The position numbers and the translations under genes were made by a program. From the IMG/VR virus record IMGVR_UViG_3300028898_000020: DNA of 43,973 bases, one strand, 5' to 3'. The stretch comes from a virus. Below, in pieces: positions 7,454 through 31,462 of this stretch (the stretch's first letter is position 1; every line of letters begins with the position of its first letter). The notes beneath the pieces are model-generated. The model was not told where the DNA came from. It searched no databases and was given only the letters and a program-made list of their open reading frames with translations.

Positions 7454-7486
7454 ATATTGGTCCCCCCGAAACCGGTTACGTGCACC
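7454..7486 (-). promoter_or_regulatory. Late-operon motif copy 5 (GGTGCACGTAACC-N14-CAATAT), upstream of the tail fibre
   Basis: Exact 13-mer at 7474-7486, 1 nt after the stop of the giant gene. The nAnnnT hexamer is at 7454-7459. 46 nt separate the motif from the TTG start. Confidence 0.55.
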
Positions 7487-7487
7487 G

Positions 7488-10400
7488 CTAGTGCGGCTCC
7501 TGGTAGCCGGTGAGAAGCGCCCCGTAGTTGGTGGTTTTGCCCTCGTTCAGCGCGTTGATGCCGGTCACCGTGCGGTTGATCTGGGCACTAGGCAAGCGCA
7601 GCAGTTCGCCGGCCACGTTGATCATGGCTTTGCGCAGGCCGTCGTCCATCTCGCCCTGGTGGATCTGTTTGCCCAGCTTGGCCAGGTCGGCAATCAGGCG
7701 CACCCCGGCCGGGCCGCTGTAATCGGTGGTGTACTGTGCCGTGCCCGTGGCGGCCTGTACGGCCCCGGTCACCTCGCGCACGCCGAACATCAGACCCATC
7801 AAAAAGCTCAGCTGCTCGCCGATCAGCTTTTTCAGGATCTTCTCCTCGTCCCAGTCGCCGGAATCGCCGGGCGTCATTGCGTCCTTGAGCAACGCGCCCA
7901 GGATGGCGGGGGCCGAGTACAGCAGGATGTAGTCGGCCCACAGCCGGGCCTTGCTTTCGGCGTTCATGGTGCGCTGTGCGCCCAGGTTCAAGGCGGTGTT
8001 GAAGAAGCTGTAAAACGTGGTGAACAGCTTGATGCCCGGGCCGCCGCGCTCGATGGCGCTCTGATCCTTGGTGCCGCCGCTGCCCTGCGCGTCGATCACG
8101 GCCTGGTCACTCAGCGCCACCGCGCGGGCTTCGTCGTTGCCCTCGCTGATGGCTTTCTCGTAGGCGCCCCACCAGGTCGGCACGTCGACCAGCTGCTGCG
8201 CGCGCATCATCAGGAAGTAAGCCGAGGCGTCAATGCCGGCGCGCACCTGGGTGCGGCCCTTGACTTGGCTTCGCACCTCGGCAATCTCGCGCAGCCGGGT
8301 GAGCGCGCGGGTGCGCATGAACTCCGACTTGCCGTTGATCTCTTCGACCGTGTCCAGCGGCGAGCCGATGGCCTTGGCGAGCCCCCGGCCCACCCACTTG
8401 GGACCGATGCGCACGATCGACTGGGTGATGCCCAGGGGCTGCATCATCGCCGACATGACGTTCAGGCCTAGGCCCGACACGCTCACGCCCTGGCGGATGT
8501 AGGCCAGCGCTTTCTCGCCGGCCGCCTGCGCGCCGCGGTCGCCGGTGGCGTTGTCCTCCAGCCACTTCTTGAACTGCTGGTGCGCGTCCGGCCCGTACTT
8601 GCTGCGCATCGCCTCGGCAATGTGCTTGTTTTTCACCAGCTTGTTGGCGTCGATCAGCCACTCGTGCCAGGTCAGATCATGAATAACCTCCTGCACGCCG
8701 TTGTATATGCCGTCCATGCTGTACAGCAGGGGCCGCCCGGTGACCTCCTCCACCCGGGCCTTGGTGAATGACCGCCGGGTGGTGGCGCTGGTGTACGCGC
8801 CGGCCAGCTGCTGCTTGGCGGCCTCGGCATCGGCGTGCGACTCGGCCCGCGCGCTGGCGCGGGGGTCGTATTTGATCGGGTAGTAGCCCCCACGCAGCTC
8901 GCCGTAGGGCGTGTGCACCGGGGTGGGTTCCACCCAGGCGGGCTCGCGGCCGTAGACCCGGGTCTCCTTGGCCGCAATGGCCGGCCGGTAGCTCTCGAAG
9001 TGGTCCCACACCGCTTGTACGAACTGCCAGTCGGTGGCGCTCAGGCTGTTGAGCACCGGCTGGATCTGCTCCAGGCTCCAGCTCTCGCCGCCCAGCAGGC
9101 GCTGCAGGTTGCTGGCGTTGCCGACGTTGAGCGCGATGGCCAGGCGTGCCTCTTTGTTCAGGCTGCGGTTGATGGTGGGGAAGAACTCACCCGCGCCGCC
9201 CAGCCGGCCCTCCTTGAGCACGGGCGCCACCAGCTTAGCCAGATCCTTGGTCGCCTTCTCGCGCATCGCCACCTCGGTGTCGCCGGCATGATTGGCCGTG
9301 CGAATCAGGTATTCCCACACCGGGCCGCCGTCCTTGCCGCCGTCCATCACGCGCGCCCAGGTGGCGGCCTTGATGTGGCTGGCCCAGAAGTTTTTGAGCC
9401 CCACCAGTTTTTCGCCCAGAATCGTGTTGGGCGTGCGGGTGTCGGCGTGGCGCCCCTTGCCGTGGGCGTAGATACTGGCGGTCATCTCGTCCACCACCGC
9501 CTGAAACTCGCGGTTGGCCTGCGACGTGAGCAGCCGATTCTTGAGCCGACCCAGGTGCTCGATCTGCTTGACGGTGTCGCGCAGGCCGCGCACCTCCTCG
9601 ACCGTCATGTCCTTGAACGACTTGCGGTTGGCTTCCTGCAGCAGCTCGGGCGGAATGTCGGGTTCCATTCCCTGCTCGACCTGCGACTGCACCCACTCGA
9701 CCAGGCTGGCGCGCCGGTCCAGGGTTTTCAGGCTGGTGCTGGCGCGCAGGTCAAAGCGCTCCAGCAGCGCCTCGATCTGTTGGCTGTACTCGGGGTCCAG
9801 GGTCTTGCTGGGCGTGTCGAACCGCTTGAAGTAGGCCACCGCCGCCTTGACCTCGTCCTGCGCGGCATAGGCCGCTTTGGTGGCGTACAGGTTGATCAGT
9901 TGATTGCGCTTGTGCAGGGCGGCCTGGGCCAGGTCGCCCGAGGCCTTGGCCGCCGCCTTGGCCGAGCGCACCTCGGCCGCCGCGTACTGCTTGGGCCGAA
10001 TGTCGCGCACCTTGAGCCTGGCGATGGTGGCCGCCGCGTATTCGCGCGCTGCCCGGGTCAGCACGTCAACCGTGCTCTTTTGCCCGGGCACCTGCTCGCG
10101 CACCGCCATGGATTTTTGCAAAGCCCGCAGCTCGGTGGCGACGAAGCGGGCGCGGGCATCGTTGTGAATGGCCGCATCCGCCGCGCGCTCCAGCCCGGCC
10201 GGGGTGGCCAGGTCGCCGTGCTCCTGCAGCATGCGGGTGTCGGTCATGCCCTCGATCACCGACTTGGGCGGCTCGGCCTCGGCCAGCTTCTTCACCAGCT
10301 CGTCACCTGAGGTGAAGCCGAACAGCTCGGCCACCAGATCAGGGTGCAGCCCGATCTCGTCGCTGGTCATGCGCAGCTCGGACAGCTTGCGCCACACCGC

Positions 10401-13400
10401 GCCGTCGGCGGTGCCGTACATATCGCGCAGCACTTGGGTGCGCAGCTTGCCCGCCCCGGCCTCTGGCATGTCGGGCAGATTGAGCGGGGCGTCACCGTAG
10501 GCCGCCGCCATGTCGCGCTTGATCGAGTACCGATCGGTGCCGCGTCGCTGGTCGTCGAACAGCGCCTCGAACTTCTCCGGGGAGAACTTACCGTGCTCGT
10601 CCGGCAGCAGGTAGCCCTCTTCCATCAGGCGATCGCCCATCGCGTCTACCGACAGGCCGCCAGTCTTGCGCACCACCGGCGCGCCAAAAACGCCGGATTC
10701 CAGGGCCTCTTTCTCGTTGATGCCCCACAGCCTCTTGACCTCGGCCCGATCCAGACCGCCCAACTTGGCGATGGCGGTGAACAAATTGTCCACCTCGGGA
10801 TTCAACCCCTTGGCGTTGCCCGACGGTTTCTCACCCGCCACCTTGTCGACGGAGCGGCTGGTCAGGAAAGCCCAGGCCCGGTAGATCGGCTGCGACATCA
10901 CCTCGGCGCGCACCTCGCGCCCGATCTGGACGCGCAGCGCGTCGTGCTGTTTCTGCAGCTCCTTGAGTTTGCGGCTTCGGGCGTTGTTGAGCCATTGCAT
11001 GTCGCGCAGGCCTCGCGCCTGCAGTTCGTCCACCGCGTCCATGGTGGCCTGGGTGCCCCGGTCGTGGTAGGCTTTGAACTCCTCCAGCGTCATGCCGGCC
11101 TGCTCGGCGCTCTGGAACAGCGGACCCATCGAGCGCGCGGCCTCGGCCTCGGCGATCTGGTCGCTGGTGGCCAGCATGCGGTCCATCACCGCGCGCACCT
11201 CGTCGGACAACTCGACCTTGAGTGCCCCGGCAACGTCGCCTTTGTTGGCCGTTACTGACTTGAGCAGGTTGCGGTAGACGTTGACCAGCCACGCCCGGAA
11301 CGTCTGAAACGCATGCTGCAGATCCAGGCTCGGGGCTTTGCCCTCGAAGGCGTAGGCCTCGAAGCCGCGTGCCCACTGTTCGTGATAGGGGCGCTTCTGG
11401 TCGGTCGTGAGGGAGGCCCAATGGTCCAGCGCTGACATCTCGGGGGTCGACTGCACCCCCATCCAGGCCAGCGTCTTGTTCATGTCATCCATGATCGAAC
11501 GCTCGCCCTCGCTGATCTGCTCCCCCTGGGCGACGCGGGTGGCGATGCGGCTGGCCAGATCGGCCTGCACTTCGAGGAAGAAGTGGCCGGACTCGTGCAC
11601 AAAAGAGCTTAAATCCGCATTGGATAACAGTGAAATGATCGAACGTGTTAAAGTAATGTCCGACCCAAACGCTATTTGGCCGCGAGCTTGCTGGTAGAAC
11701 GTGCCTTGTGTTGCGCCACCAAGTCCCGCGCCTGGTTCACCCTGCTCGCGATGTATTGACTCCAAAACAGATCGTCGTGCATCCGCTCCCGATAGAAGGG
11801 AATTGAAGATAGCAGCTCTTTGTAGAGTGGTGCGGCCTGCCTGTCCAGCTCCCGCCGCTCTTCCATCGAAGCCAAGCATTTCGGACAGCTCCGCATTGCT
11901 TTGAACACGCCCGTCCCCGTCAACAAATGATTGTGTTGCAGGGTCGAAGTGGAAGAGGCTTGTGGCATTGGGGTTTGCGTGTTCGGTGGCCGCGACCGAC
12001 ACGTCCACCATGGCCCTGATATTACCCAAGGTATCGCCGTCTGTCCACTTGAGCGGGGGCACCCCAATTTCAGCATTGCCCTCCAGCTGGGACGGGTGAG
12101 GCTCCAGAAAGTCGGTGCTGCCGTACTTGATGGCCGCCGAGAGCATGTTCTCCAGCCGACGCCGCATGGCCGCCGCGCTCACGCCAAGGGGGTCGCCGAC
12201 GAACTTCAACCCGTTGTTGAAAGCGTAGTTCGCCGCCAGGTCATACACCGCGCTGCCGCCGTTGCCCTCGCCCACCGCCGACACATTGATGTGAACGCGG
12301 CCGCCGTCGTTGGTCAGCGTGGCGTGCTTGCCGGTGGGCAGCGTGACAATCCACGAATGCGTGGTCGCGCTCTCGTCCGGGGTGGTGTTGGCCAGCATCC
12401 AGACCTCGGGGTCGGCACTGTTGCGATCCACCTCGCTGACCGTCAAGCCCTTGGCCGCGCCGATGTCGCGCACGTCCAGTGCCTGCGATTTGGGGTATTG
12501 GTACAGGCTGTCCAGCTTGCCCAGCTCCAGCAGCACGCGCGAGATCCCCAGCTTGGGGTCGGCATAGTCCACCTCGGCGGTGGATTGGTTCATGATGTTG
12601 CCGCTGTTGTCGAAGGTGCCCCGGTTAAACACGCTCTTGATATTGGCCGGGTTCCATACGTTCAGGGCGTTCTCGTAGTGGTCGTCGCGCACCCCGGCGA
12701 CGCCTTCGGCTTCGGCCGTCTTGCGCGCGGCGTCCCAGTTGCCGCCAGCGTCCTGTACCCGTTGGCTCCAATCGGCATGGCTGATGTATTTGCCCCGGAC
12801 GTACACCGGCATCAGGTGCTCGCCGCCCTTGCCGTCGCCGTCATAGAGGCTTGCGGCCTCGGCGTCCAGACCCAAGTACACGCCGGGCCCGATCAGCCCC
12901 GACTTACTGGCCTTGAACGTGGTGAAATTCTTGTTGGTGCCGTGGTATAGCACCATCGGCTGGCCCTGCTCGTCGAGCATGTTGCTGTCGCCGAACCACT
13001 TTTTGAACGCCGGGGTGTCGGTCACCAGCTTGCCGGCCTGGTCGTACTGATCCATCACCTGCGCCCCCGCCGACTCCTTGGCCGAGAACCCAAGGCGGTA
13101 CACGTCGGCGAACTGCTGCACCGTCATGCCGGTGCGCGCCGCCATTACGGCATAGAAGCTGGCCGCCAGCTCGGCGTATCGCTCGTTCACCTGGGCGGTG
13201 AAGCGTTTCAGTTCGGTGAGCTGGGTCAGGATCTGGGCCTGCACCTGGTCGCGCCCGGCCTTGAACTCGGCGTCGTTCTCGCGCTGGGCCATCACGCGCT
13301 CGACCTCGGCCTGGATGTCGTTGCCCTTCTCTTGCATGTAGGACTGGGCCTCGATGCGACTCATGCCGGTCACGTCGGTGCGGGCGTTGTCGACCAGCGC

Positions 13401-14777
13401 CTGGGCGTATTCGTTGCCGATCGCCCCGGTCAGCAGCTCGCCGGTGGGCACCACCAGGTCGCCACCAGATTCGACCTGGTCGAGCTGGGCCGCGATGCTG
13501 GGCACCGTCTGGGCCAGGGCCTGCAGATCCACGCCGGCCTCGACCAGCTTGGCGCTATCCAGGTAGATGTTGGGCGTGCCCTCGTCGGCCAGCTCCTGCA
13601 TGTAGGCGCGCAGGGTCTCGGGGCTGCGTTCCAGCAGCTTGCTGGCCTCGGCGGTCTTGATCACCTGCTCCAGCACCTTGGCGTGCGCTTCGGCTCGCTG
13701 CGCTGCGCTGTCGTCTTTTTGCTCCTGACCCATCAGCCGCTGCGCGCCCTTGACGGCCCCAATCTGCACGCTTCCACCGACCAGGGTGGCAATGGCGGTC
13801 TCTGCCAGCGCGGCCGGCTGTTCGGCCAGGAAGTCGCCTACCGACTTGTTCGGGTTGAGGTGAGTCCACTGGTTGAAGTTCTGCCACAGGGTGGCGGCCA
13901 TCTCGCCGGGCACTTCCTTGGACACCTCGTACATGAACAGTTTGCCCGCTGACGCACTGGCCTTGACGTTCTTCAAGAAGCCCGCCGCGCCCAGATACTT
14001 CTCGGTCACGATTTCGGCGGTGCCATCCTCGATGCCGTAGGCAGTGGCCTGGTAGGGATTGAGCCCGGCTTCGCGGCCCTTGGCGTAGGACTGCCCGCCT
14101 GTGATCACGCCCATCAGGCCCAGCATGGCCTGCTCACCAGTCATTCTGGTGGCGTTGGCCAGGCCCACCGGCAGCATCGCCAGGTTCTGCCCGGCGGAGC
14201 GCATCCCTGACATGAAGCCGCGCTCTGCCAGGCCCGCGTCAGGGTCGACGCCGGAAACCGAATCGGCCGCCCGGCTGGCGCTTTTGCTCTGGTCGCGCAG
14301 GAAGCCCCCGATGGTATCCAGGCCCAGCATCTCAAACGGCGACGCCGCCGCACCGTAAGCGCCCGCCCCGAAGCTGGGCACGCCTGACGCCAAACCCCGT
14401 GCCGCCTTGGCAACATCGGTCAGCGCGCCGCCTCGGGGTGCGGTGGGCGCGCTGGTGAGGTAGCGCAGGCCCGCTTCCAGCGCGCCCATGTTGTCCAGAT
14501 CGTCGTGCGCCACCCGGGCGTTATTCATGTCGGCGGCCAGCCAGCCGCGCAGCTTGGGGGCCTGCTCCAGGCCGGCCAGGCTGTCCTCCACCTTGGCGCG
14601 AGTCTCGTAGTCGGGTTTGAATTCGTCGATCACGCCGGGCGGCAAGCCGTAGCGCTGGGCCAACTGGGTGCTGCGCGCGGCCGCGTCTGGGTTGGCCTCG
14701 ATTCCAAAGCGCAGGTTCAGCCCCGCGCGCTGCTTGTCGCTGGCGCCATCGTCCAGCAGGTCGGCATAGTCACCCAT
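7488..14777 (-). CDS. Giant internal-virion / ejection polyvalent protein (ART-like + zincin HExxH domains)
   Basis: 2,429 aa in the gp16-like position. VLYHGTNKNFTTFK..GPGVYLG..YENALNVW (about 12618-13025) fits an H-Y-E ADP-ribosyltransferase-like domain. FVHESGHFFLEV (about 11581-11607) is an HExxH metallopeptidase motif. The C-terminus is hydrophobic. Confidence 0.85.
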   Translation of the reverse strand: MGDYADLLDDGASDKQRAGLNLRFGIEANPDAAARSTQLAQRYGLPPGVIDEFKPDYETRAKVEDSLAGLEQAPKLRGWLAADMNNARVAHDDLDNMGALEAGLRYLTSAPTAPRGGALTDVAKAARGLASGVPSFGAGAYGAAASPFEMLGLDTIGGFLRDQSKSASRAADSVSGVDPDAGLAERGFMSGMRSAGQNLAMLPVGLANATRMTGEQAMLGLMGVITGGQSYAKGREAGLNPYQATAYGIEDGTAEIVTEKYLGAAGFLKNVKASASAGKLFMYEVSKEVPGEMAATLWQNFNQWTHLNPNKSVGDFLAEQPAALAETAIATLVGGSVQIGAVKGAQRLMGQEQKDDSAAQRAEAHAKVLEQVIKTAEASKLLERSPETLRAYMQELADEGTPNIYLDSAKLVEAGVDLQALAQTVPSIAAQLDQVESGGDLVVPTGELLTGAIGNEYAQALVDNARTDVTGMSRIEAQSYMQEKGNDIQAEVERVMAQRENDAEFKAGRDQVQAQILTQLTELKRFTAQVNERYAELAASFYAVMAARTGMTVQQFADVYRLGFSAKESAGAQVMDQYDQAGKLVTDTPAFKKWFGDSNMLDEQGQPMVLYHGTNKNFTTFKASKSGLIGPGVYLGLDAEAASLYDGDGKGGEHLMPVYVRGKYISHADWSQRVQDAGGNWDAARKTAEAEGVAGVRDDHYENALNVWNPANIKSVFNRGTFDNSGNIMNQSTAEVDYADPKLGISRVLLELGKLDSLYQYPKSQALDVRDIGAAKGLTVSEVDRNSADPEVWMLANTTPDESATTHSWIVTLPTGKHATLTNDGGRVHINVSAVGEGNGGSAVYDLAANYAFNNGLKFVGDPLGVSAAAMRRRLENMLSAAIKYGSTDFLEPHPSQLEGNAEIGVPPLKWTDGDTLGNIRAMVDVSVAATEHANPNATSLFHFDPATQSFVDGDGRVQSNAELSEMLGFDGRAAGAGQAGRTTLQRAAIFNSLLSGADARRSVLESIHREQGEPGAGLGGATQGTFYQQARGQIAFGSDITLTRSIISLLSNADLSSFVHESGHFFLEVQADLASRIATRVAQGEQISEGERSIMDDMNKTLAWMGVQSTPEMSALDHWASLTTDQKRPYHEQWARGFEAYAFEGKAPSLDLQHAFQTFRAWLVNVYRNLLKSVTANKGDVAGALKVELSDEVRAVMDRMLATSDQIAEAEAARSMGPLFQSAEQAGMTLEEFKAYHDRGTQATMDAVDELQARGLRDMQWLNNARSRKLKELQKQHDALRVQIGREVRAEVMSQPIYRAWAFLTSRSVDKVAGEKPSGNAKGLNPEVDNLFTAIAKLGGLDRAEVKRLWGINEKEALESGVFGAPVVRKTGGLSVDAMGDRLMEEGYLLPDEHGKFSPEKFEALFDDQRRGTDRYSIKRDMAAAYGDAPLNLPDMPEAGAGKLRTQVLRDMYGTADGAVWRKLSELRMTSDEIGLHPDLVAELFGFTSGDELVKKLAEAEPPKSVIEGMTDTRMLQEHGDLATPAGLERAADAAIHNDARARFVATELRALQKSMAVREQVPGQKSTVDVLTRAAREYAAATIARLKVRDIRPKQYAAAEVRSAKAAAKASGDLAQAALHKRNQLINLYATKAAYAAQDEVKAAVAYFKRFDTPSKTLDPEYSQQIEALLERFDLRASTSLKTLDRRASLVEWVQSQVEQGMEPDIPPELLQEANRKSFKDMTVEEVRGLRDTVKQIEHLGRLKNRLLTSQANREFQAVVDEMTASIYAHGKGRHADTRTPNTILGEKLVGLKNFWASHIKAATWARVMDGGKDGGPVWEYLIRTANHAGDTEVAMREKATKDLAKLVAPVLKEGRLGGAGEFFPTINRSLNKEARLAIALNVGNASNLQRLLGGESWSLEQIQPVLNSLSATDWQFVQAVWDHFESYRPAIAAKETRVYGREPAWVEPTPVHTPYGELRGGYYPIKYDPRASARAESHADAEAAKQQLAGAYTSATTRRSFTKARVEEVTGRPLLYSMDGIYNGVQEVIHDLTWHEWLIDANKLVKNKHIAEAMRSKYGPDAHQQFKKWLEDNATGDRGAQAAGEKALAYIRQGVSVSGLGLNVMSAMMQPLGITQSIVRIGPKWVGRGLAKAIGSPLDTVEEINGKSEFMRTRALTRLREIAEVRSQVKGRTQVRAGIDASAYFLMMRAQQLVDVPTWWGAYEKAISEGNDEARAVALSDQAVIDAQGSGGTKDQSAIERGGPGIKLFTTFYSFFNTALNLGAQRTMNAESKARLWADYILLYSAPAILGALLKDAMTPGDSGDWDEEKILKKLIGEQLSFLMGLMFGVREVTGAVQAATGTAQYTTDYSGPAGVRLIADLAKLGKQIHQGEMDDGLRKAMINVAGELLRLPSAQINRTVTGINALNEGKTTNYGALLTGYQEPH

Positions 14778-17103: not shown

Positions 17104-17132
17104 GGATCGCGCCCTATGGTGGAAGTGATCCG

Positions 17133-17165
17133 ACTGTGCCGCGCGCAGCGGGGGTTACGTGCACC
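17133..17165 (-). promoter_or_regulatory. Late-operon motif copy 4 (GGTGCACGTAACC-N14-CACAGT)
   Basis: Exact 13-mer at 17153-17165; it contains the TAA stop of 17155..17625. Hexamer at 17133-17138. Confidence 0.55.
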
Positions 17166-20436: not shown

Positions 20437-20465
20437 AAAAGAAAGGGGGCACTTGGCCCCCTTTC
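20437..20465 (-). terminator. Intrinsic terminator after the capsid block
   Basis: Minus strand reads GAAAGGGGGC-CAAGT-GCCCCCTTTC (10-bp stem, 5-nt loop) followed by TTTT. It is followed by the AGGAG RBS of the next gene. Confidence 0.75.
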
Positions 20466-20488
20466 GCTGCTACACCGAGCCGGCCGAT

Positions 20489-20695: not shown

Positions 20696-20707
20696 GTCGC
20701 GCTCCTA

Positions 20708-21160: not shown

Positions 21161-21185
21161 GGTTTGTTCTCCTGGAGTTGACGAA

Positions 21186-22205: not shown

Positions 22206-22224
22206 GGTGGGTAGCCTTTCAAAG

Positions 22225-22956
22225 TTACGGGTTCATGTCGGGATACATGCGCTGGGCCAGCGACTGCTCGCCCTTGGGGCCGGCACCGCCGGTGACCATG
22301 CGGTCCTCACTGATCGCCCGGCCAGCGCGCACCATGAAGCGGATCACTTCGGGGTGGTTGCCGAATCGGGACTCTTTCAGCAGCGTGCGCAGCTCTGGGG
22401 AGCCAAAGGCGTCCAGCGCTTTCTCGCCGACGGCCAGGTTCTCGGCCAGCTTGTCGCCGCCGAATTCCTTGTCGGTACGCGAGGCCGTGGCCCATTCGGC
22501 TGCTGCCGTCTGGATCAGTTCAGCCTGCTGGGTGGCCCACTTCTGCGCGAGTTTCGCGCCGATGTCGGTCACTTTTTGCGCTGCTTCCTGGGTGAGGTCG
22601 AGCTCGCGGGCCAGGCCCTCGAACTCTCCGAGCAATTCCGTGTCCAGCTTCACCCCCTCGGGCGCGGCCAGCTCGTACTTCTCAGGCGCCGCCTTTGCGG
22701 GCGGTGCACCCTCGCCGTCCTTCTCACCCTCGGGCTTCCCTTCGGGTTTGTCGGTAGGGGGCTGCTTGCTTGCGTCGGCCGCTGGGGCCTCTGCGGTTTG
22801 CGTGTCGGCGGTGTTGGTGTTGTCGCCTTCACTCAAAAGGGTTGATGCAGCCGGGGCCGATGTGGCCGGGGCTGCAGGTGTCGGGGTCGTCGCGGCACCG
22901 CCGGTCGAGGTCTGAGCCCCTTCGGCGCCTTGCAGTCGAAAATGCTTGAACTTCAT
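22225..22956 (-). CDS. Scaffolding protein
   Basis: ATG 22956 overlaps the upstream stop (ATGA); 243 aa. Low-complexity Ala/Pro/Thr N-part and a charged helical C-part; directly upstream of the MCP. Confidence 0.65.
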   Translation of the reverse strand: MKFKHFRLQGAEGAQTSTGGAATTPTPAAPATSAPAASTLLSEGDNTNTADTQTAEAPAADASKQPPTDKPEGKPEGEKDGEGAPPAKAAPEKYELAAPEGVKLDTELLGEFEGLARELDLTQEAAQKVTDIGAKLAQKWATQQAELIQTAAAEWATASRTDKEFGGDKLAENLAVGEKALDAFGSPELRTLLKESRFGNHPEVIRFMVRAGRAISEDRMVTGGAGPKGEQSLAQRMYPDMNP

Positions 22957-23267
22957 TCGCGTGCTTCTTTCAACATGATTGGGTACAGCTCGGGACTGGC
23001 CTGCTGGATCAGGGCCAGCGTGCGCAGGCCCTCGTTCTTGCAACCCTCGGCGAATGCCATGGACATCGCGTTGGTGTTGAAGGACAGCCGGAAAACCCCC
23101 GCCCGGTCGAGCACCCGCCACAGCACGCGCCGGCCGCGCTTGGTGGACATCAGCCACTTGGTGTCGTCCACGTCGGTCTGCGCGGCGAGCTTGTCCTGCT
23201 GCTCTCGGGTCTTGAGTGCAGCGGCCTGGCCGGGCAGATCGTGGGGGTCGTAGTCGGGCGTGCTCAT
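22953..23267 (-). CDS. Conserved small phage protein
   Basis: 104 aa; first gene downstream of motif copy 3. Confidence 0.55.
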   Translation of the reverse strand: MSTPDYDPHDLPGQAAALKTREQQDKLAAQTDVDDTKWLMSTKRGRRVLWRVLDRAGVFRLSFNTNAMSMAFAEGCKNEGLRTLALIQQASPELYPIMLKEARE

Positions 23268-23324
23268 GTCGGGCTCACATTTGGTTCACCTTGAAGATTG
23301 CGAAATTCCTGCATAGAGGCCTGC

Positions 23325-23357
23325 AGGTTAGGCGCGCCTGTGCGCGTTACGTGCACC
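23325..23357 (-). promoter_or_regulatory. Late-operon motif copy 3 (GGTGCACGTAACG-N14-TAACCT)
   Basis: 12/13 match at 23345-23357, 2 nt after the stop of 23360..23572. Hexamer at 23325-23330. Lies in a 92-nt gap. Confidence 0.5.
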
Positions 23358-23359
23358 AC

Positions 23360-23572
23360 CTACCGGCCGCGACGCCGGCGCACGAAGATGGGCACCAGGC
23401 TGGCGCGCACCGCGTTGACGTTCCACAGCAGCGCCCCGTGCACGCCGCGCCAGAGCACCCCGCCAGGGTGGGCCAGCTCGGTGCCGCCGGGGTCGTAGAC
23501 ACGCCAGGTGTTGCCATCGAACACCTTGCGCCCGGTGAGCACGGCCAGGATCTGCTCCTCAGTCGCCATCAC
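23360..23572 (-). CDS. Hypothetical protein
   Basis: 70 aa, ATGA-coupled to the upstream gene. Confidence 0.5.
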   Translation of the reverse strand: MMATEEQILAVLTGRKVFDGNTWRVYDPGGTELAHPGGVLWRGVHGALLWNVNAVRASLVPIFVRRRRGR

Positions 23573-24912
23573 GCGAGCGCGTCAATGCGCGCGAGAGTGC
23601 CGCCCGTGTAGGGAATGGTGCCGGCGGCATCGGCCCAGGCGTTGGCCTGGTACAGGATCGACACCCCGTCGTCGTCGTAGAGCGTGAACTTGCCGGTGGT
23701 GGGGTTCAGCTCTTGGCGGTTGGCCAGGATCTTGTAGATCAGGTCCAGCGTGCTGTAGAGGCCGCCAAAGTGCAGGTTGTCAGCCGTGTGCGCGTGGACC
23801 GCGTCCTGGATGGCCAGCCACGTGTCCAGCGTCAGCGCGAGATTGTCAGCGGCGTGCGCGTGCAGAGCGTCGGCGATCAGCAGCGCGGGGGCGCCCGACA
23901 GGTCGAGGTTGTCAGCGGCGTGCGCGTGCAAGGCATCGGCCACGACCAGCCACGTATCCAGGGTAAGGGCCAGGTTATCCGCAGCATGCCCATGCAGCGC
24001 ATCGGCCACGGTCAGCCAGGCATCGGTGCTCAGCGTCAGCGCGTCAGCTGTGTGCGCGTGCGTGGCGTCCGCCACGGTCAAGCTGGTGCCGGTGGTGGCG
24101 TCCAAGGTCAGATTGTCCGCCGTATGCCCGTGGGTCGCGTCGGCGATCACCAGGGCCGTGCTCGATGTCAGCACCAGGCTGTCGGCGGTGTGGCCGTGCG
24201 TGGCGTCGGCGACGGTCAGGGTCGGGGTGCCGCCAGTCGCAGCTCGCACTCGGCTGTTACGCGGCAGTGGCTCCACAATCTGCCACGGGTTCTCAAGCAG
24301 GCTGCGAACCTGTGTCTGGTTCAGAATCCCAGAAGAGATAGCCGCCAGTTCAACGCCGATGGTCCCAGACGTGGCGAGTACCACGCTGAAATCGGTTGGT
24401 GACACGATTGCCAGCGCATCGCTGAACGTGAATACCGGCTTGCCAGGTCGCTTGAACCACGATGTCTGACCAGACGCGGTCCAGTTCGTCACCAGCACAC
24501 CAGCGATCTTGTTGAACGCCGTGATGCCAGTTTCGACAAGCTGGTTTGTGCCGCTCCCAACCGTGTTCGCAACCCAATTCAACTGAATCGACGATCCGCC
24601 AGTAGCGACCAACAGTCGAGCGCCGCCTGTGTTGTTGCCGGCGTTGAACAGTGTTCCCGACTGTGTCGCAGTCGGAAACATCATCACCAGCACAGAGCAC
24701 CATGGGCGCAAGCCAAGATTGCGGCTCGTTCCAGTGTTGAATGCCGCGTTCGGCACGCCGGCCAGACCGTTGAAGGTGCGGACCTTGGGGATTTTCCCGC
24801 CATCGTTGCCCGGCGTCCATAGATAGTCGCACTCGGCGCCGAAGAAGTGAGCGCGGTTCGGCCTAACTACTCCCTGCGGCTGATCGGCGTGTGGGATCAG
24901 CAAACGCGTCAT
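23569..24912 (-). CDS. ConA/LamG-like domain protein with seven HxH fibre repeats
   Basis: ATG 24912 (447 aa) lies 11 nt after the upstream stop. The N-terminal ~225 aa are LamG-like and end in LLENPWQI. Seven repeats ADA[TL]H[GA]H[TA]AD[NSA]L follow (23767-24222). Confidence 0.7.
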   Translation of the reverse strand: MTRLLIPHADQPQGVVRPNRAHFFGAECDYLWTPGNDGGKIPKVRTFNGLAGVPNAAFNTGTSRNLGLRPWCSVLVMMFPTATQSGTLFNAGNNTGGARLLVATGGSSIQLNWVANTVGSGTNQLVETGITAFNKIAGVLVTNWTASGQTSWFKRPGKPVFTFSDALAIVSPTDFSVVLATSGTIGVELAAISSGILNQTQVRSLLENPWQIVEPLPRNSRVRAATGGTPTLTVADATHGHTADSLVLTSSTALVIADATHGHTADNLTLDATTGTSLTVADATHAHTADALTLSTDAWLTVADALHGHAADNLALTLDTWLVVADALHAHAADNLDLSGAPALLIADALHAHAADNLALTLDTWLAIQDAVHAHTADNLHFGGLYSTLDLIYKILANRQELNPTTGKFTLYDDDGVSILYQANAWADAAGTIPYTGGTLARIDALA

Positions 24913-24923
24913 GATGGCGCCTT

Positions 24924-25433
24924 TTAAGCGTTGGTGGCTGTGATCGCCTTGAAAGCTACGACGCAGCCCGTACCAAAGGCCGCGCCCGTGCAATTGCGGA
25001 TTGCAAGGCTCCAGCCATCTGGCACGATGCCGCCGCAGTTTGCCGCCACGGTCAGATAGCCATCCAATGGCTGGCCGGTGATCTTGTACGGTAGGCTGGC
25101 TGTTGGTCGCATGGAGTTGGGGTCGCTAACGCTGGCAGCGCCTTCTACCCCGGTGGGCCGCGTGGTGGTGCCGAAGTTGCCCATGGGCACCCATGATGTT
25201 CCGTCATGCATCCATGGCACCAAGTACACATAGGCCGTTGCGTCATTGGCTGGTGCTGTTGCTGCCGTGGACAGCTTAATCAACACCTCGTAGTCAATCG
25301 CCTTGGTGGTGCGGTTGTCAACGATGTCGCTTTGCCACGCGCCAAACGGGTCTGTCGAGTCGTTCGCCAGTGATTGCAGGTTTGTGACGGTCAGCGCCGT
25401 GTAGCTGCCGTATGCAATGTTTTCCGTGGTCAT
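24924..25433 (-). CDS. Hypothetical virion-module protein
   Basis: 169 aa, beta-rich. Confidence 0.55.
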   Translation of the reverse strand: MTTENIAYGSYTALTVTNLQSLANDSTDPFGAWQSDIVDNRTTKAIDYEVLIKLSTAATAPANDATAYVYLVPWMHDGTSWVPMGNFGTTTRPTGVEGAASVSDPNSMRPTASLPYKITGQPLDGYLTVAANCGGIVPDGWSLAIRNCTGAAFGTGCVVAFKAITATNA

Positions 25434-25436
25434 GGC

Positions 25437-26000
25437 TTACCGCCCACCAACGATGTCACTCACTAGCTGCTCGTCGAGCTTGCCCTGCCAGGTCAACACC
25501 CGCGCCGTGACAGGCCCGGTGGTGTCGCTGGCAATGACTGGCGCGGCCAACAGCAATTCAGCCACGGTAGCAAGGCGCGTGCAGGCGTTCAGCGTGTTGA
25601 CGCCACCAGCACCGCCAGCAGAGGCCATCGCGCCGCCAACGCCGGTCGGCAGTTGAATCACCGCATCGCGCAGATCGGCCCGCGCCTGGGGCAGGCTCAT
25701 ATCCACGGACTCCAAGCCTTGCAACATGATCTGCAAATTGATCTGCTTGGTCTGTGCCAGCAGAGCCCGGTTGGTGAAGGTGGCCGTGTTGTCCGCCGCG
25801 TCGTTCGGCGTGTAGCTCGAAAACGTGATCGCTGCGCGGATTGTCTTGGTGGACACTTCCGTGCGCCAGGCCTTCAATGCGCTGTCGGCGTTGTAGTATG
25901 CCGCAATCAGCGTTTCGCTTGTGATGCCGAACAGCGGCTGGCCGCTGGCCTGCTTGGTGACAATGTCGTTCTTGAGCGCGAGCTTCTGTTCTGGGGTCAT
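25437..26000 (-). CDS. Hypothetical virion-module protein
   Basis: 187 aa. Confidence 0.55.
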   Translation of the reverse strand: MTPEQKLALKNDIVTKQASGQPLFGITSETLIAAYYNADSALKAWRTEVSTKTIRAAITFSSYTPNDAADNTATFTNRALLAQTKQINLQIMLQGLESVDMSLPQARADLRDAVIQLPTGVGGAMASAGGAGGVNTLNACTRLATVAELLLAAPVIASDTTGPVTARVLTWQGKLDEQLVSDIVGGR

Positions 26001-26009
26001 GGTGGTCTC

Positions 26010-26387
26010 TCAGGTCGGGGCCGCGACTTCAATGTCCCAGGCAGGGAAGTTGACGGTGTTCGAGCCGTTGGCTGTCAGCGCCTGGCTTGTGCAGGTGGTG
26101 ACGTAGATCAGCGTCGAGTCGGAGACCCGCACCAGGGCGACGTGGGTGGCCGTGCCGCTGACGTCGATCAGGACGGCGCTTTTGGCCCCCATCGTGACCT
26201 TGCGCCCGCTCACGTCGCCGGCCGCTTTGGTGAAGTCGCCGCCGGCCATGGTCACATCCGCCAGCGCATAGGTTGCATTGGCCTCTGTGTAGGTGGTCGG
26301 CTGCGCGCTGCAGGCGATCATGCGCGTGGCCGTGGCGATCACGTCCAGCGAGCCATCGAGCACAATGTTCGGAGCGGCTTTACCCAT
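26010..26387 (-). CDS. Hypothetical virion-module protein
   Basis: 125 aa, beta-rich. Confidence 0.55.
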   Translation of the reverse strand: MGKAAPNIVLDGSLDVIATATRMIACSAQPTTYTEANATYALADVTMAGGDFTKAAGDVSGRKVTMGAKSAVLIDVSGTATHVALVRVSDSTLIYVTTCTSQALTANGSNTVNFPAWDIEVAAPT

Positions 26388-26589
26388 TGCTGTCTCCTGT
26401 AGCGGTGGCAGTGCTTTGCACGTCCAAGGTCACCGCGCCGTCGAACTGCTCGCGGGGTTCGTCACCAGCCGGGGCGGCCCAGCCGTTGGCGACGAAGTAG
26501 GCGCCGCGGTCATCGGGCACCGTGCGAACGTCTCCGGCCTCGTACCGGTCGGTGCCGTCGAGGAATGTTGTGGTGCAAGTGATTCGCAT
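26380..26589 (-). CDS. Hypothetical protein
   Basis: 69 aa; overlaps the downstream gene by 8 nt. Confidence 0.5.
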   Translation of the reverse strand: MRITCTTTFLDGTDRYEAGDVRTVPDDRGAYFVANGWAAPAGDEPREQFDGAVTLDVQSTATATGDSNG

Positions 26590-26592
26590 CGT

Positions 26593-27069
26593 TCAACCTC
26601 CTGCCAGTTTTGCGAGATAGGTGCGTGCCTCGCCGGCCCGCGCTTCGAGTTCGGCCACTTCGGCCGTGAGGGCGTTGTACTGGGCGGCGCTCGCCGCGAA
26701 CAGCTCGTCCCGCTTGGCGCGCTCGGCGGTGATCCATTCGCTGGTCTCCTGACGCAGCAGGTTGGCCTGCTCGGTGGCGCGCTCGAGCACGCCCGCGGCC
26801 TCGTCCTGCGCATCGCGCAGCACCCGCTTGGCCTCGTCCTGCACGCTGGCCGCGCTGTCGATGGCAGCGGCCAGCTGCTCGCGCGCTGCTACCACCTCGG
26901 CTTGCTCGGCCAGGATCTGTTCCTGCAGCCGGGCCAGCGCGGCCTCGGCCTCGGCCTGGGCCTGCTGCAGACCGCCCACCTTGTCGAAGGCATCGGCCAC
27001 TTCCTGCACCGCTGCGAAGCCGCGCAGCAGTCGGCGCGCGTCGTCGGCGGCTTTCAAGTACTCGTTCAT
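26593..27069 (-). CDS. Coiled-coil protein
   Basis: 158 aa, Ala/Glu/Gln-rich with heptad character. Confidence 0.55.
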   Translation of the reverse strand: MNEYLKAADDARRLLRGFAAVQEVADAFDKVGGLQQAQAEAEAALARLQEQILAEQAEVVAAREQLAAAIDSAASVQDEAKRVLRDAQDEAAGVLERATEQANLLRQETSEWITAERAKRDELFAASAAQYNALTAEVAELEARAGEARTYLAKLAGG

Positions 27070-27073
27070 GGGG

Positions 27074-27418
27074 TTACTCCTTCAAAAGCAGGATCAAGGC
27101 CAGGCTGGTGGAGCCATCGCCCGCCAGCACGCGGGGCCGCACAAAGGCCGTGGCCTCGGCGACCATCTCGATCTTGGCTGTCGAGAAGTTCAGCGGGTTG
27201 CCTTGCGGATCGGTCAGCACGGACCAGTCGGCGCCGTTGTTGCTGCCCTCCAGGGCAACCACGCCGCCGACGCCAAAGTCGCCCACCACCTGGGCGCTCT
27301 TGTCGGTGTACTGTGAGAACGCGATGGGCTCGCCCGTGTCGCCGTTGAGCAGGCCCGGCCAGGTCAGGACAAAGGCCCGGGTGTTGCCGGTGGCGGTTTT
27401 GGTGGGTTGAATGATCAT
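27074..27418 (-). CDS. Hypothetical beta-sandwich-like protein
   Basis: 114 aa, directly downstream of the portal gene. Confidence 0.55.
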   Translation of the reverse strand: MIIQPTKTATGNTRAFVLTWPGLLNGDTGEPIAFSQYTDKSAQVVGDFGVGGVVALEGSNNGADWSVLTDPQGNPLNFSTAKIEMVAEATAFVRPRVLAGDGSTSLALILLLKE

Positions 27419-27427
27419 GGTCGGTCC

Positions 27428-29095: not shown

Positions 29096-29454
29096 CAGCC
29101 CCCCAGCAGCGTGGTCTTGCCCAGCAGCAGGGCCTTGGGATCAACGCCTTGCGGGCCGGTCAGCAGCGTGCCGCCCACCCCGCCCTTGGCGGCCTGCTCG
29201 GCCGAGGACTGCATGGCGCCGATGTCAGCGGTGCGGGCGTTGGCCTTGTTGTTGGCCTGGTCGGCGGCATCCGCCTGGGCTTTGGCCGCTGCCGTTGCCT
29301 GCGCGGTGGCCTTGTTCTGGGCGCTGGCCGCCTTGTTCGCGCTGTAGGCCTGCGCCGCCACACTGGCCGCGCCGACATACGCCATGGTGCCCACGGCAGC
29401 GGCCGAGCTGGCCGAGGCGCCGAGCATCATGCCAATGGTTGCAGGTTCGCACAT
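29095..29454 (-). CDS. Small Ala-rich virion protein
   Basis: 119 aa. N-terminus MCEPATIGMMLGASASS; C-terminal TLLTGPQGV..LLGKTTLLGG. 49 nt downstream of motif copy 2. Confidence 0.6.
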   Translation of the reverse strand: MCEPATIGMMLGASASSAAAVGTMAYVGAASVAAQAYSANKAASAQNKATAQATAAAKAQADAADQANNKANARTADIGAMQSSAEQAAKGGVGGTLLTGPQGVDPKALLLGKTTLLGG

Positions 29455-29456
29455 GG

Positions 29457-31067
29457 TCAGCCCTTCATTGATTCGTAGGGGTCATATTCCCGCCTCTTGA
29501 CCGGGTTACGTGCACCGGGTTGGCGGTCGGCCGGCACGTGCTCGGGCACGGGGTAGGCAAAGGTCAGGGCCAGCGCATCGCCATCGTCGGGGCTGGCCAG
29601 GCCGCGCGCCTTCATGTGCTCCTTGCTCTCAAGCTGGATCTGGTCGGTCAGGGTGAACTGGTACTCCACGCTGGTCAGGTCGATGGCCAGCGTTTCATCC
29701 TTGGGCAAGCTGCCTATGGCCAGCCACTCCTTGACCCGGCCCCACATCTCGGCGCGCTTGTTTTTGTACTTGCCCGGGTCATCGGGCTTGCCGCCGAACT
29801 GCACCTCGATCACCTCGCGGTCCATCTGGCGCAAGCGATCCACTACGCCGCCCCCGACGCCACCGCCGTCGACAAACACCACGGGGTGCAGGCCCAGCCC
29901 GCGCAGGTAGTCCATGTGCTCGGCTACCCGACTGGCCAGCTGCATCGTGTCGAGCTCGCGGAACCGCTTTACCGGTATGGTTGTGCCGTCGCGGCCGATG
30001 CGCGTGCGAATCACGCTCTGGTCATCCCCGAAGCGCGCCACATCAACACCCACCGCACAGGTACGGCCAACCAGCTGCAGCTCATTGGCCGGTCGCGCCA
30101 TGGCCTGGTCGACCAGGTCGCGGGCAATGAGCTGCAGGCTCGACGCGCTGGGGAACACCCCGCGCACGCGCACCTTGACGAAATCGCTGCCCTCGCCGTA
30201 GTCCTTCACCCACTCGGCCAGCAAGGCCTTGTTGGTTATGGCCACACTGCGACTGTCGATGTGCTGGCCGTGCCAGCGATGGCGCTGGGCGCCGAAGCAA
30301 TCGGCAAACGCCCCGGTGTTGCGCGTGGGGTTCCCAAAGGCAAACCACATCGGCTCACCGTCGGTCATACCGCCCTTGGACACTTCCCAGATCTTGTTGG
30401 GCACGCCCGAGGCCTCGTCGAAAATGTAAAAACTGGTGCTGTTCACCGCGTGCTGCCCGGCGAAGGCCTCGCTGTTCTCCTCGCGGCAGGTCTGGGCCGC
30501 ACAGAACCACGATTCACGGTGCTGCTTGTGCACCATGCGCATAGCGCCCTTGCCGGTGGTGATGTCGAACCAGTGGCCGGTGATGCTGCGCTTGTTCCAC
30601 TTGGCAATCTCGGCCCACGTCTTGGAACTGAGCTGATCGCTGGTGGTGGCGGTCACGGTGCCGTGGGCATAGGGCCGGGTTGACATGATCCAGCCCACCA
30701 GCCACCCCACCATGGCCGATTTGCCGATACCGTGGCCAGAGCTGATGGCTTCCATGATGGCGGGCACCGGCGTGTGCCCGTCGAAGTCATGCTCCCGCAC
30801 TTGGCGGCCCAGATTGTCCAGAAACTCACAAGCCCAGGCATCAGGCCCGTACTCGCTGGGGTAAAGCAGATTCCAGGGGCTGGGCAGCTTGACCACCTGC
30901 AGCGCGGGGTCGGTATCCCACTGGTAGGCGTACAGCACCCACCCGAGCGGATCGGCGAAGAACTGGCCCATGTCCTGGGCCAGCATCAGCTCTGAATCAA
31001 CCTCGCCCACTGCGCTTTCGCGCCTCGATGATGGTCGTGGCCGAGTCGATGCTGCCGCTGTGCTCAA
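29457..31067 (-). CDS. terL: Terminase large subunit
   Basis: 536-aa ORF; an alternative ATG at 30986 would remove the 71-nt overlap with terS. Walker A-like GHGIGKSAMVGW, Walker B FYIFDEASGV, nuclease motifs AVGVDVARFGDD and VFVDGGGVG. Confidence 0.85.
   Translation of the reverse strand: MSTAAASTRPRPSSRRESAVGEVDSELMLAQDMGQFFADPLGWVLYAYQWDTDPALQVVKLPSPWNLLYPSEYGPDAWACEFLDNLGRQVREHDFDGHTPVPAIMEAISSGHGIGKSAMVGWLVGWIMSTRPYAHGTVTATTSDQLSSKTWAEIAKWNKRSITGHWFDITTGKGAMRMVHKQHRESWFCAAQTCREENSEAFAGQHAVNSTSFYIFDEASGVPNKIWEVSKGGMTDGEPMWFAFGNPTRNTGAFADCFGAQRHRWHGQHIDSRSVAITNKALLAEWVKDYGEGSDFVKVRVRGVFPSASSLQLIARDLVDQAMARPANELQLVGRTCAVGVDVARFGDDQSVIRTRIGRDGTTIPVKRFRELDTMQLASRVAEHMDYLRGLGLHPVVFVDGGGVGGGVVDRLRQMDREVIEVQFGGKPDDPGKYKNKRAEMWGRVKEWLAIGSLPKDETLAIDLTSVEYQFTLTDQIQLESKEHMKARGLASPDDGDALALTFAYPVPEHVPADRQPGARNPVKRREYDPYESMKG
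29484..29516 (-). promoter_or_regulatory. Late-operon motif copy 2 (GGTGCACGTAACC-N14-GAATAT), inside the terL 3' end
   Basis: Exact 13-mer at 29504-29516, hexamer at 29484-29489. Encodes ..GARNPV.. of TerL. Confidence 0.5.
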
Positions 31068-31428
31068 CGTGCTGGCGCTCGCCGTAGCGCTTCGGGTCCC
31101 ACTTGGCCAACAGCTTCAATCGGGTCTCGATGCGCAGCTTTGAGCGCTGGACGTGCTCGGGATCAAACGCAAGGCCCTTTTTGGTCTGCTTGTAGTCCTT
31201 CGTCGTGTCGTCCGCGATCACAAAGCAGTCGTCGGCGATAGCGTCATAGCCGATATTCCGCGCGTGCGCGATGCGTTGGGCGATGTCTTTGTCTGCATTG
31301 GCCCAGTCGTAGACCACGGTGCGCTCGGGCATGTGCACATCGCGGCAAATCTGGGCCAGCGGCTCCCCCTTACTCAAGCGGGCACAAATTTCGTCAACAA
31401 GGGCTTCGCGGTCTGCGTACATGCCCAC
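30997..31428 (-). CDS. terS: Terminase small subunit
   Basis: 143 aa (GTG 31428 or ATG 31422). HTH PLAQICRDVHMPERTVVYDW and RLKLLAKWDPKRYGER are typical of phage TerS. Confidence 0.75.
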   Translation of the reverse strand: MGMYADREALVDEICARLSKGEPLAQICRDVHMPERTVVYDWANADKDIAQRIAHARNIGYDAIADDCFVIADDTTKDYKQTKKGLAFDPEHVQRSKLRIETRLKLLAKWDPKRYGERQHVEHSGSIDSATTIIEARKRSGRG

Positions 31429-31429
31429 A

Positions 31430-31462
31430 AGGATGCGGCCGCCTCACCCGGTTACGTGCACC
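31430..31462 (-). promoter_or_regulatory. Late-operon motif copy 1 (GGTGCACGTAACC-N14-CATCCT), upstream of terS
   Basis: Exact 13-mer at 31450-31462, 4 nt after the stop of the HTH gene. Hexamer at 31430-31435, ending 7 nt before ATG 31422. Confidence 0.55.

Follow-up and report, generated by a model that had tools for sequence, protein, structure and literature searches.

Candidate late promoters with a fixed -10-like box and a small helix-turn-helix protein as their putative activator in BPP-1-like temperate podophages

Introduction

The middle promoters of phage T4, which depend on MotA and AsiA, combine a good -10 element with an asymmetric 9-bp box that replaces the -35 element and is read by a monomeric activator at many promoters. 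In the case of lambda CII (promoters PRE, PI and PaQ) and of PhoB, the site of a small helix-turn-helix (HTH) activator overlaps or replaces a poor -35 element at several promoters. Asymmetric sites are also found in phage L5, where 13-bp stoperators bound by the immunity repressor occur about two dozen times genome-wide, without a linked -10 box. In phages of Gram-positive bacteria, the Ltr late regulators (RinA, ArpU and LtrA-C) activate the late morphogenesis and lysis genes, each acting on its own control region (PMC3753634). Here we describe a set of repeated elements in the late operon of IMG/VR virus record IMGVR_UViG_3300028898_000020. The whole stretch of 43,973 bp that was analysed (hereafter the window) is an entire metagenomic contig with the complete genome of a temperate podophage of the BPP-1 type, with a G+C content of 65% and the gene order of Bordetella phage BPP-1. 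A sequence-only reading had proposed that these elements are factor-dependent late promoters, an interpretation for which the relatives of this phage now provide strong comparative support. They further point to a 76-residue HTH protein as the probable activator.

Results

Five co-oriented elements lie at gene boundaries of the late operon

The five copies of GGTGCACGTAAC(C/G) that had been proposed at gene boundaries of the late operon were all recovered, each on the minus strand. The exact 13-mer GGTGCACGTAACC is present at 31462-31450, 29516-29504, 17165-17153 and 7486-7474, and a 12/13 copy, GGTGCACGTAACG, in which the last C is replaced by a G, is located at 23357-23345. A search of both strands of the window allowing up to two mismatches returned no further copy of the 13-mer, and none of 100 dinucleotide shuffles reached five matches. 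Exactly 14 nucleotides (nt) downstream of each of the five 13-mers lies a hexamer of the form nAnnnT; when the five copies are aligned, the A and the T of this hexamer are the only invariant columns outside the 13-mer. Relaxing the core to two mismatches while keeping the box gave 12 sites, including the 5 perfect ones, against 6.7 expected, the additional sites being at chance level. The predicted promoters and their surroundings are as follows.

31430-31462, minus strand: predicted late promoter 1, with the block at 31462-31450 and the hexamer CATCCT at 31435-31430; the block begins 4 nt after the stop codon of the HTH gene, and the terS ATG (31422) lies 7 nt past the hexamer.
29484-29516, minus strand: predicted late promoter 2, with the block at 29516-29504 and the hexamer GAATAT at 29489-29484; it lies inside the 3' coding end of terL, 50 nt before a 119-codon gene (ATG 29454) that is followed by the portal gene.
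23325-23357, minus strand: predicted late promoter 3, with the block at 23357-23345 and the hexamer TAACCT at 23330-23325; it begins 2 nt past a stop codon and is followed by a 104-codon gene (ATG 23267), a scaffold-region gene and the capsid gene.
17133-17165, minus strand: predicted late promoter 4, with the block at 17165-17153 and the hexamer CACAGT at 17138-17133; the block contains the TAA stop of a 156-codon gene, and the internal-virion genes (ATG 17103) come next.
7454-7486, minus strand: predicted late promoter 5, with the block at 7486-7474 and the hexamer CAATAT at 7459-7454; it begins 1 nt past the stop codon of a 2429-codon gene, and the tail-fibre gene (TTG 7427) and the lysis genes come next.

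The relation of the copies to stop codons and the distance from the first hexamer to the ATG at 31422 agree with what had been read from the window before. In the frame of terL, promoter 2 reads GGT GCA CGT AAC (G-A-R-N). The A2 and T6 of a σ70-type -10 box are present in 5/5 copies, and the -35 position does not follow the σ70 sequence: as claimed earlier, the 13-mer is unlike TTGACA, the corresponding slot reading CACGTA. A scan for σ70 consensus promoters found none between 16500 and 36400. The terminator announced after the capsid block is also there (20465-20437, minus strand). It reads AAAGGGGGC-caagt-GCCCCCTTT and then CTTTTC, that is, a 9-bp G+C-rich stem, a 5-nt loop and a T-rich tail; this structure was read directly and is not listed by a simple terminator scan.

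The window had also been said to encode no phage RNA polymerase, and this held for the open reading frames (ORFs) scanned. Neither an RNA polymerase nor a sigma factor was found by Pfam, PHROG and NCBIfam scans of the ORFs submitted, which were not every ORF of the window; no ORF outside these scans exceeds about 340 amino acids. T7-like RNA polymerases have about 880. Sigma70_r4_2 gave a single weak, below-threshold match, to a 75-residue excisionase-like HTH protein whose best Pfam match is HTH_17.

The block, the box and their spacing are conserved at the same slots in relatives

Relative loci, designated below by L-numbers, were collected through TerL, the capsid protein and the HTH protein. 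Since the TerL search among cultured phages returned only distant terminases of other phage groups (at most 47% identity), TerL is a poor marker for this phage family. Conservation at syntenic positions, on which the earlier proposal depended, was found in dozens of relatives, in which the block and the A/T box keep both their slots and their coding-strand orientation. In the closest relatives, GGTGCACGTAA-like blocks are found at the HTH stop codon before terS, at the 3' end of terL, before the scaffold-region gene and before the internal-virion genes, with nAnnnT at the same distance as in the window and a differing spacer sequence. Relatives, including BPP-1 and the Caulobacter Jessaviruses, possess 3-5 copies each at the same slots.

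Each slot has its own counterparts. That of promoter 1, at the HTH stop codon and directly before terS, is filled in most relatives. Orthologues of promoter 2 at the 3' end of terL were found in L001-L004, L008, L022, L128 and BPP-1 (before bbp24). The slot of promoter 3 is usually leaderless in relatives, with a gene product starting MSNY..., and is represented in BPP-1 by the copy before bbp19. Syntenic copies of promoter 4 lie about 4.5-5 kb downstream of the start of the capsid gene in L004, L008, L099, L109, L118, L121 and L144, and promoter 5 has counterparts between bbp10 and the fibre gene bbp9 of BPP-1 and before a tail-protein gene of Caulobacter phage BL94.

Matches to a degenerate core followed by the box numbered 90 on the coding strand and 4 on the other strand, whereas matches without the box were near parity (176 and 131). 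A search presuming only the A and the T at fixed offsets yielded one dominant 9-mer core per phage and, overall, about 31 core variants with the consensus GT[GAT][CT][AGC]CNTA, for example GTGCACGTA, GTGCGCGTA, GTGTGCATA, GTTCACATA, GTACGCATA and GTGCCCGTG. Of the exact phage-specific cores, 209 lie on the late strand and 4 on the opposite one. The A/T box is located at offset 26 in 94% of these 209 cores and at any other offset in 7% at most; the 94% figure is partly circular because core-calling demanded the box in at least two copies per phage; the strand bias and the narrow peak at one offset are free of this circularity. In the resulting logo, gGTGCACGTAcc is followed by 15 uninformative bases, by T(64%)-A-n-n-n-T and by a G+C-rich stretch, position 1 of the hexamer being T in 64% of the 196 box-bearing sites. 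The element is therefore bipartite, with an upstream 11-bp block, a non-conserved spacer of fixed length and a -10-like hexamer invariant at A and T. An iterated position weight matrix across all loci was abandoned, as it drifted to unrelated low-GC contigs.

A tendency to pairing was also observed between the last spacer bases and those that follow the hexamer, as in CCCGC-A-TAGATT-GCGGG (about 196 sites considered; examples in L121, L128 and BPP-1). The effect is weak: the longest stem around the hexamer has a mean length of 3.67, compared with 3.41 +/- 0.05 in shuffles, and reaches 4.06 at leaderless sites. Apart from this small excess of complementarity, no conserved hairpin was found in the spacer or flanking the hexamer.

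Cultured phages carry the element

In BPP-1 (NC_005357, L231), GGTGCCCGTGC occurs four times with the same spacing as in the window.

BPP-1 copy 1: after bbp27 and before terS.
BPP-1 copies 2 and 3: directly in front of the ATG of bbp24 and directly in front of the ATG of bbp19.
BPP-1 copy 4: between bbp10 and the fibre gene bbp9.

Bbp27 (26337-26573) is the homologue of the 76-residue HTH protein of the window, and its gene is followed by bbp26 (terS). RefSeq names it 'endonuclease'; as the protein is a 78-residue HTH domain alone, without a nuclease domain, this name is probably wrong. The promoter block sits inside the annotated 5' extension of bbp26, whose true start is therefore probably further downstream than the annotated 26318; the predicted leaderless ATG lies in frame at about 26255, 21 codons downstream. 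Transcript starts are predicted in BPP-1 at about 26255, 24092 and 20708 and, for the copy before bbp9, about 7 nt past a hexamer ending near 6153.

In Caulobacter phage BL94 (L081), GGTGCGCATGAT occupies three intergenic gaps, of which one precedes terS, one gp048c and one a tail-protein gene. The gap upstream of its HTH gene (2752-2867) contains four GTAACCA/GTAACTA copies in 116 nt, a repeated site of another kind that is possibly an operator of an early regulator. HTH homologues were also found in Caulobacter phages JessA, SR18 and RapA and in Limnohabitans phage DC33, and capsid-protein matches in genome collections came from two metagenome-assembled genomes labelled Gammaproteobacteria and Sphingomonadales. 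From these cultured phages and the two capsid matches, the system spans Alpha- and Betaproteobacteria and probably Gammaproteobacteria.

Start codons coincide with the predicted transcription start

A start codon opening an ORF of at least 60 codons is found 6-8 nt after the hexamer in 105 of the 196 sites (54%; 98 of them ATG), compared with 7% at random anchors. This is the distance at which a σ70-type -10 element places position +1, and therefore many late genes of these phages would be expressed from leaderless mRNAs. At the sequence level, this coincidence is in our view what speaks most strongly for promoters and against roadblocks or RNA signals. It also lends comparative support to the leaderless terS mRNA postulated for the window, whose start is predicted at or next to ATG 31422. 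In the window the leaderless prediction concerns terS only, promoters 2-5 having predicted leaders of about 20-55 nt; in relatives, up to three late genes would start in this way. In window coordinates, the predicted starts are about 31422-31423, 29477, 23318, 17126 and 7447.

A small HTH protein encoded next to the first element

The gene that ends in front of promoter 1 is the candidate for the cognate factor.

31467-31697, minus strand: gene for a basic 76-residue HTH protein.

It is the last gene of a lytic early operon that begins at a cro-like gene. In nearly all relatives the HTH gene lies directly 5' of the first copy, and in many of them the block overlaps its last codons. A side observation follows from this arrangement: promoter 1 of many relatives encodes the last residues of the HTH protein, GTG CAC GTA being read as V-H-V. 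Because the promoters lie inside reading frames, the C-terminal tails of the HTH protein and of TerL change with promoter specificity.

No early gene other than the HTH gene is conserved across the family. A match to it was found in 188 loci, compared with 4/73 for the neighbouring 101-residue protein, and IMG/VR contains at least 366 relatives (366-373). The 101-residue early protein (33999-34304, minus strand) matches PHROG 2044, 'RNA polymerase beta subunit', with E = 5e-6; it was considered as a co-factor and rejected, being present in only those 4 of the 73 relatives with enough upstream sequence.

Pfam HTH_28 and HTH_23 gave sub-threshold matches to the 76-residue protein, and its match to PHROG 6156 ('endonuclease') is a resemblance to the DNA-binding region (178-233 of 261 residues) of HNH endonucleases. 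NCBIfam returned nothing, a PDB sequence search gave generic HTH matches only, and Pfam, PHROGs and NCBIfam did not place the protein in the RinA, ArpU, LtrA-C, Mor/C or MotA families. Its AlphaFold model (predicted local distance difference test score 87.7) shows helices at 26-37, 42-49 and 53-60, paired N- and C-terminal strands and a conserved N-terminal segment.

The recognition helix co-varies with the core of the element

Each phage has one uniform core variant. The covariation of protein and site was assessed by a contrast test on pairs of phages with different bases at one core position, chosen to be phylogenetically independent on a tree of the portal and the HTH protein in which the candidate contact residues of the latter were masked. 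Sixteen such pairs contrast G with A at core base 5, and the highest scores were those of Thr55 (+11 for the G side), Asp58 (+11) and Ser52 (-11), followed by Arg63 (+9) and Arg23 (+8); the best of 555 portal columns scored 7. Residues 52, 55 and 58 share one face of the predicted recognition helix. Base 5 is tracked by HTH column 76 (His) as well; this was set aside as trivial, the motif itself encoding the C-terminal V-H-V in many relatives.

Further patterns that are chemically sensible were seen at two other bases, on 4-7 independent pairs, only base 5 having enough contrasts. At base 3, Cys57/Tyr58 occur with T, Gln57 or Asn57 with A, and Arg57 mostly with G; at base 7, Gln21 goes with C, Arg21 or Lys21 with A or T, and Asn21 or His21 with G.

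Specificity also switches among close relatives. Phages of about 85% DNA identity carry either GTACGCATA with AKSTVQDIC or GTTCACATA with SKxQVCYIC in the helix; their flanks are alignable, yet the same two core bases differ in all three orthologous promoters. One clade with portals less than 10% divergent contains four specificities. The earlier suggestion that the HTH protein is the cognate factor thus gains support from a helix that co-varies with the element in phylogenetically independent pairs, and the concerted switching suggests a regulator specific for its own control region, a feature of the Ltr/RinA class.

Gene content of the window

The other features to which the argument refers are listed here.

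35302-36006, plus strand: LexA-like CI (HTH and Peptidase_S24), followed on the plus strand, in this order, by a DUF2800 nuclease, an Enc34-type single-stranded DNA-binding protein and a family A DNA polymerase.
34969-35214, minus strand: cro-like HTH gene.
34969-36006: immunity switch (cro-like gene and CI).
31929-33992, minus strand: primase/helicase.
ATG 31422, minus strand: terS (Pfam Sf6_terminase).
7488-14777, minus strand: 2429-residue polyvalent protein among the internal-virion genes (LPD22, ART-PolyVal [ADP-ribosyltransferase] and LPD37).
2801-3862, minus strand: integrase.

After the HTH gene, the minus strand carries terS, terL, portal, capsid, nozzle, internal-virion genes, fibre, lysis and integrase, in this order. 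The immunity switch is the presumed source of the transcript carrying the HTH gene. The cI-cro gap (35215-35301) contains two palindromes, GTTGC-N7-GCAAC (about 35220-35236) and CTTGCG-N5-CGCAAG (about 35266-35282), which are likely CI/Cro operators and are unrelated to the 13-mer. Between the primase/helicase and the HTH gene, a gap of about 230 nt (31698-31928, minus strand) holds only a doubtful ORF; the corresponding place in BPP-1 is taken by bbp28, a gene on the opposite strand. A terminator, a promoter or some other element that times the expression of the putative activator could lie in this gap.

Three further observations concern the gene content itself. Just after cI, 36503-37645 (plus strand) encodes a DUF7666 protein with about 24 tandem 8-residue units SASSATG[DY][RQ], whose PHROG matches include tail-fibre-like families. 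Seven genes (23360-27418, minus strand) separate the portal gene from promoter 3, where BPP-1 has one, bbp20; two of them (24924-25433 and 23569-24993) have a third-codon-position G+C below 0.78, the cut-off used for gene calling, and the region looks like a cargo block inserted within the late operon. The 2429-residue polyvalent protein may be an ejected effector.

Discussion

The data themselves provide the anatomy of the element, its syntenic conservation, its fixed spacing, its coincidence with start codons and the covariation of protein and site. That the elements are late promoters, each activated by the 76-residue HTH protein, is in our view the probable explanation as a complete mechanism, and we hold the narrower claim, that they are promoters, with more confidence. 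In this mechanism, the HTH protein would be made from the last gene of the lytic early transcript, once CI has been inactivated or cleaved, and would bind the block, probably as a monomer. Core bases 3-5 would be read by its recognition helix (52-58) and the 3' half of the block by the conserved N-terminal segment (G12, R14, G16, H19, N21 and K23). From the asymmetry of the site, its lack of repeats and the resolvase-type HTH matches returned by Foldseek, we would expect a helix in the major groove with an arm in the adjacent groove. The 11-13-bp asymmetric block would stand in place of the -35 element, with the 13-mer at -39 to -27 and the 9-mer core at -38 to -30, while the hexamer (nAnnnT here, TAnnnT in most relatives) would occupy -12 to -7 and be read by region 2 of a σ70-family factor. 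The protein would then recruit or activate host RNA polymerase at all five promoters, which otherwise lack a -35 element, and transcription would begin 6-8 nt past the hexamer, in the window at the terS ATG itself for promoter 1. The spacing hardly varies, which suggests a link of rigid geometry to the -10-reading part of sigma. We infer, then, that the protein physically contacts the block, that it activates rather than represses, that the sigma factor is of the σ70 family and that RNA polymerase is contacted. The one strong terminator, behind the capsid block and with two promoters beyond it, fits a downstream re-initiation for the tail, internal-virion, fibre and lysis genes.

Several points weigh against this interpretation. 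The hexamers of the window are weak, only 1/5 starting with T, and in BL94 the box lies one nt further away and 1/3 of the sites has no clean box. Foldseek found only generic resolvase, IstA, LuxR and MarR-type HTH matches (E >0.1), and an hhalign comparison with region 4 of E. coli σ70 gave a probability of 7% and negligible similarity; with a generic fold and no likeness to sigma region 4, there is no indication of how RNA polymerase would be contacted. The naive mutual information between HTH columns and motif positions, with z up to 12.5, was rejected as evidence: portal columns scored equally, so that this signal is mostly shared ancestry and confounded by phylogeny. The partial circularity of the spacing figure and the small number of contrasts at bases 3 and 7 belong here as well. 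Finally, internal promoters would in principle be dispensable if transcripts from the early promoter extended into the late genes. Such read-through may contribute to late expression and leaves the conservation of the elements unexplained.

If the elements are promoters, the block might nevertheless be read by a host alternative sigma factor or by another phage protein, the HTH protein being otherwise employed, for example as a terminase accessory. Such an arrangement appears unlikely to us. It would account for a generic fold that gives no hint of contact with RNA polymerase, for the occurrence of HTH_23/HTH_28 in transposases, for the resemblance to the DNA-binding end of phage HNH endonucleases (PHROG 6156) and for the position of the gene next to terS; part of the covariation might also be linkage, as the first copy overlaps the 3' end of the HTH gene. 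The residues tracking base 5, however, lie on one helix face, are encoded about 60 nt upstream of this overlap and exceed every portal column, and copies 2-20 kb away change together with the helix. The block also varies among phages of related hosts, even between phages of about 85% DNA identity, which makes a host factor unlikely, and no other early protein is conserved across the family. An extracytoplasmic function sigma promoter, with an AAC-type -35, a CGT-type -10 and a cognate sigma gene, does not describe the element either: its -10 is TAnnnT-like, and no full sigma factor is present in the scanned ORFs.

Two readings other than promoters had been offered along with the initial proposal, and both fit less well. 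Operator or roadblock sites of the L5 stoperator kind, at which a bound phage protein would repress or pause late transcription, would share the asymmetric 13-bp sequence, the single orientation relative to transcription and the location in short intergenic gaps, and a site that overlaps the -35 position could serve as an operator. The repressor of this phage is, however, a LexA-like CI whose operators in the cI-cro gap are apparently palindromes unrelated to the block, the co-varying protein is encoded in the lytic operon, and the sites number only 4-5, all within the late operon. Moreover, a roadblock needs neither a -10-like box at a fixed distance of 16 nt nor a start codon 6-8 nt beyond it, and we consider this explanation improbable. 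We give even less weight to an element acting in the polycistronic late RNA as a processing, stability or translation signal, for which the strict strand bias, the placement at gene boundaries and the small excess of pairing across the hexamer could be invoked; the strand bias would then follow from RNA being the form that acts. No conserved hairpin accompanies the block and the spacer is uninformative, so that a nut/boxB-like element, in which a hairpin adjoins a linear box, is not recognised. The two invariant bases at a fixed gap match A-11 and T-7 of a -10 element, and the covariation partner is an HTH protein, of the kind that binds double-stranded DNA.

Promoters activated by the HTH protein thus remain the preferred interpretation. 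A more far-reaching form of it, taken as a whole, is only a tentative possibility. The 76-residue protein would be a monomeric stand-alone substitute for sigma region 4 that sits at the -35 position, rigidly spaced from the -10 element, docks host RNA polymerase there and has diversified into at least 30 specificities, set by residues 52, 55, 57 and 58 of the helix and 21 and 23 of the N-terminal arm. The driving force would be orthogonality between co-resident phages or protection of late genes against piracy, and the result would be a readable recognition code with orthogonal pairs working across Alpha-, Beta- and Gammaproteobacteria.

If the proposed mechanism is correct, it explains late transcription without a phage RNA polymerase in widespread T7-shaped temperate podophages, whose cultured members include BPP-1, the model for diversity-generating retroelements, the Caulobacter Jessaviruses and Limnohabitans phage DC33. 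It provides exact coordinates of promoters and transcript starts, suggests corrections of gene starts such as that of BPP-1 terS, and points to an extensive use of leaderless late mRNAs. A very small protein that co-varies tightly with an 11-bp site would constitute a natural dataset for protein-DNA recognition and a possible source of orthogonal activator/promoter pairs for engineering. The switching of specificity in near-identical phages raises the question of why late-gene switches diversify like immunity regions.

The putative activator and its predicted promoters form a new family, of which the literature searched gives no description. No account of the motif or of a role for Bbp27 was found there, and the 2004 BPP-1 genome paper might mention putative promoters. 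In hundreds of related phages, including BPP-1, the comparison points to about 30 co-evolved promoter/protein versions. With the T7-like promoter sets, the system has in common several phage-specific promoters along a T7-ordered structural operon and a co-evolution with a phage-encoded specificity determinant, close relatives having distinct versions. The T7-like promoter is, however, a contiguous sequence of about 23 bp (about -17 to +6) read by a phage RNA polymerase, whereas the element described here has two conserved parts, one at -39 to -29 and the other a sigma-type -10 (-12 to -7), separated by 15 uninformative nt. It shares with the L5 stoperators asymmetric, co-oriented intergenic sites of about 13 bp and differs from them by its 4-5 sites restricted to the late operon, its -10 box at a constant distance and the start codon that frequently coincides with the predicted +1.

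The closest systems in gene position and cascade logic are the Ltr proteins, and the closest in promoter architecture are the MotA boxes and the -35 replacement by CII and PhoB. As in the Ltr systems, the regulator gene directly precedes the late genes, the HTH gene ending 4 nt before promoter 1 and terS here and holding the same position in relatives and BPP-1. In the Ltr systems the whole late cluster depends on one terS promoter, and the protein binds a repeat region in front of it (PMC3753634). The phages described here, which infect Proteobacteria, have 4-5 promoters; at each of them one asymmetric site stands where the -35 element would be, and its distance from the -10 is rigid. The centre of this block lies near -34, that of the MotA box near -30. 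Nothing here points to a remodelling of sigma region 4, as in sigma appropriation by MotA/AsiA, and no MotA/AsiA homologue was found in the ORFs scanned. CII and PhoB use direct repeats read by oligomers and control the lysogeny decision or the phosphate response, whereas the present block is a single non-repeated 11-bp sequence in the service of late lytic expression. What sets this system apart from those known is the combination of 4-5 promoters per genome, a rigidly spaced single asymmetric site, frequent leaderless starts and a diversified specificity.

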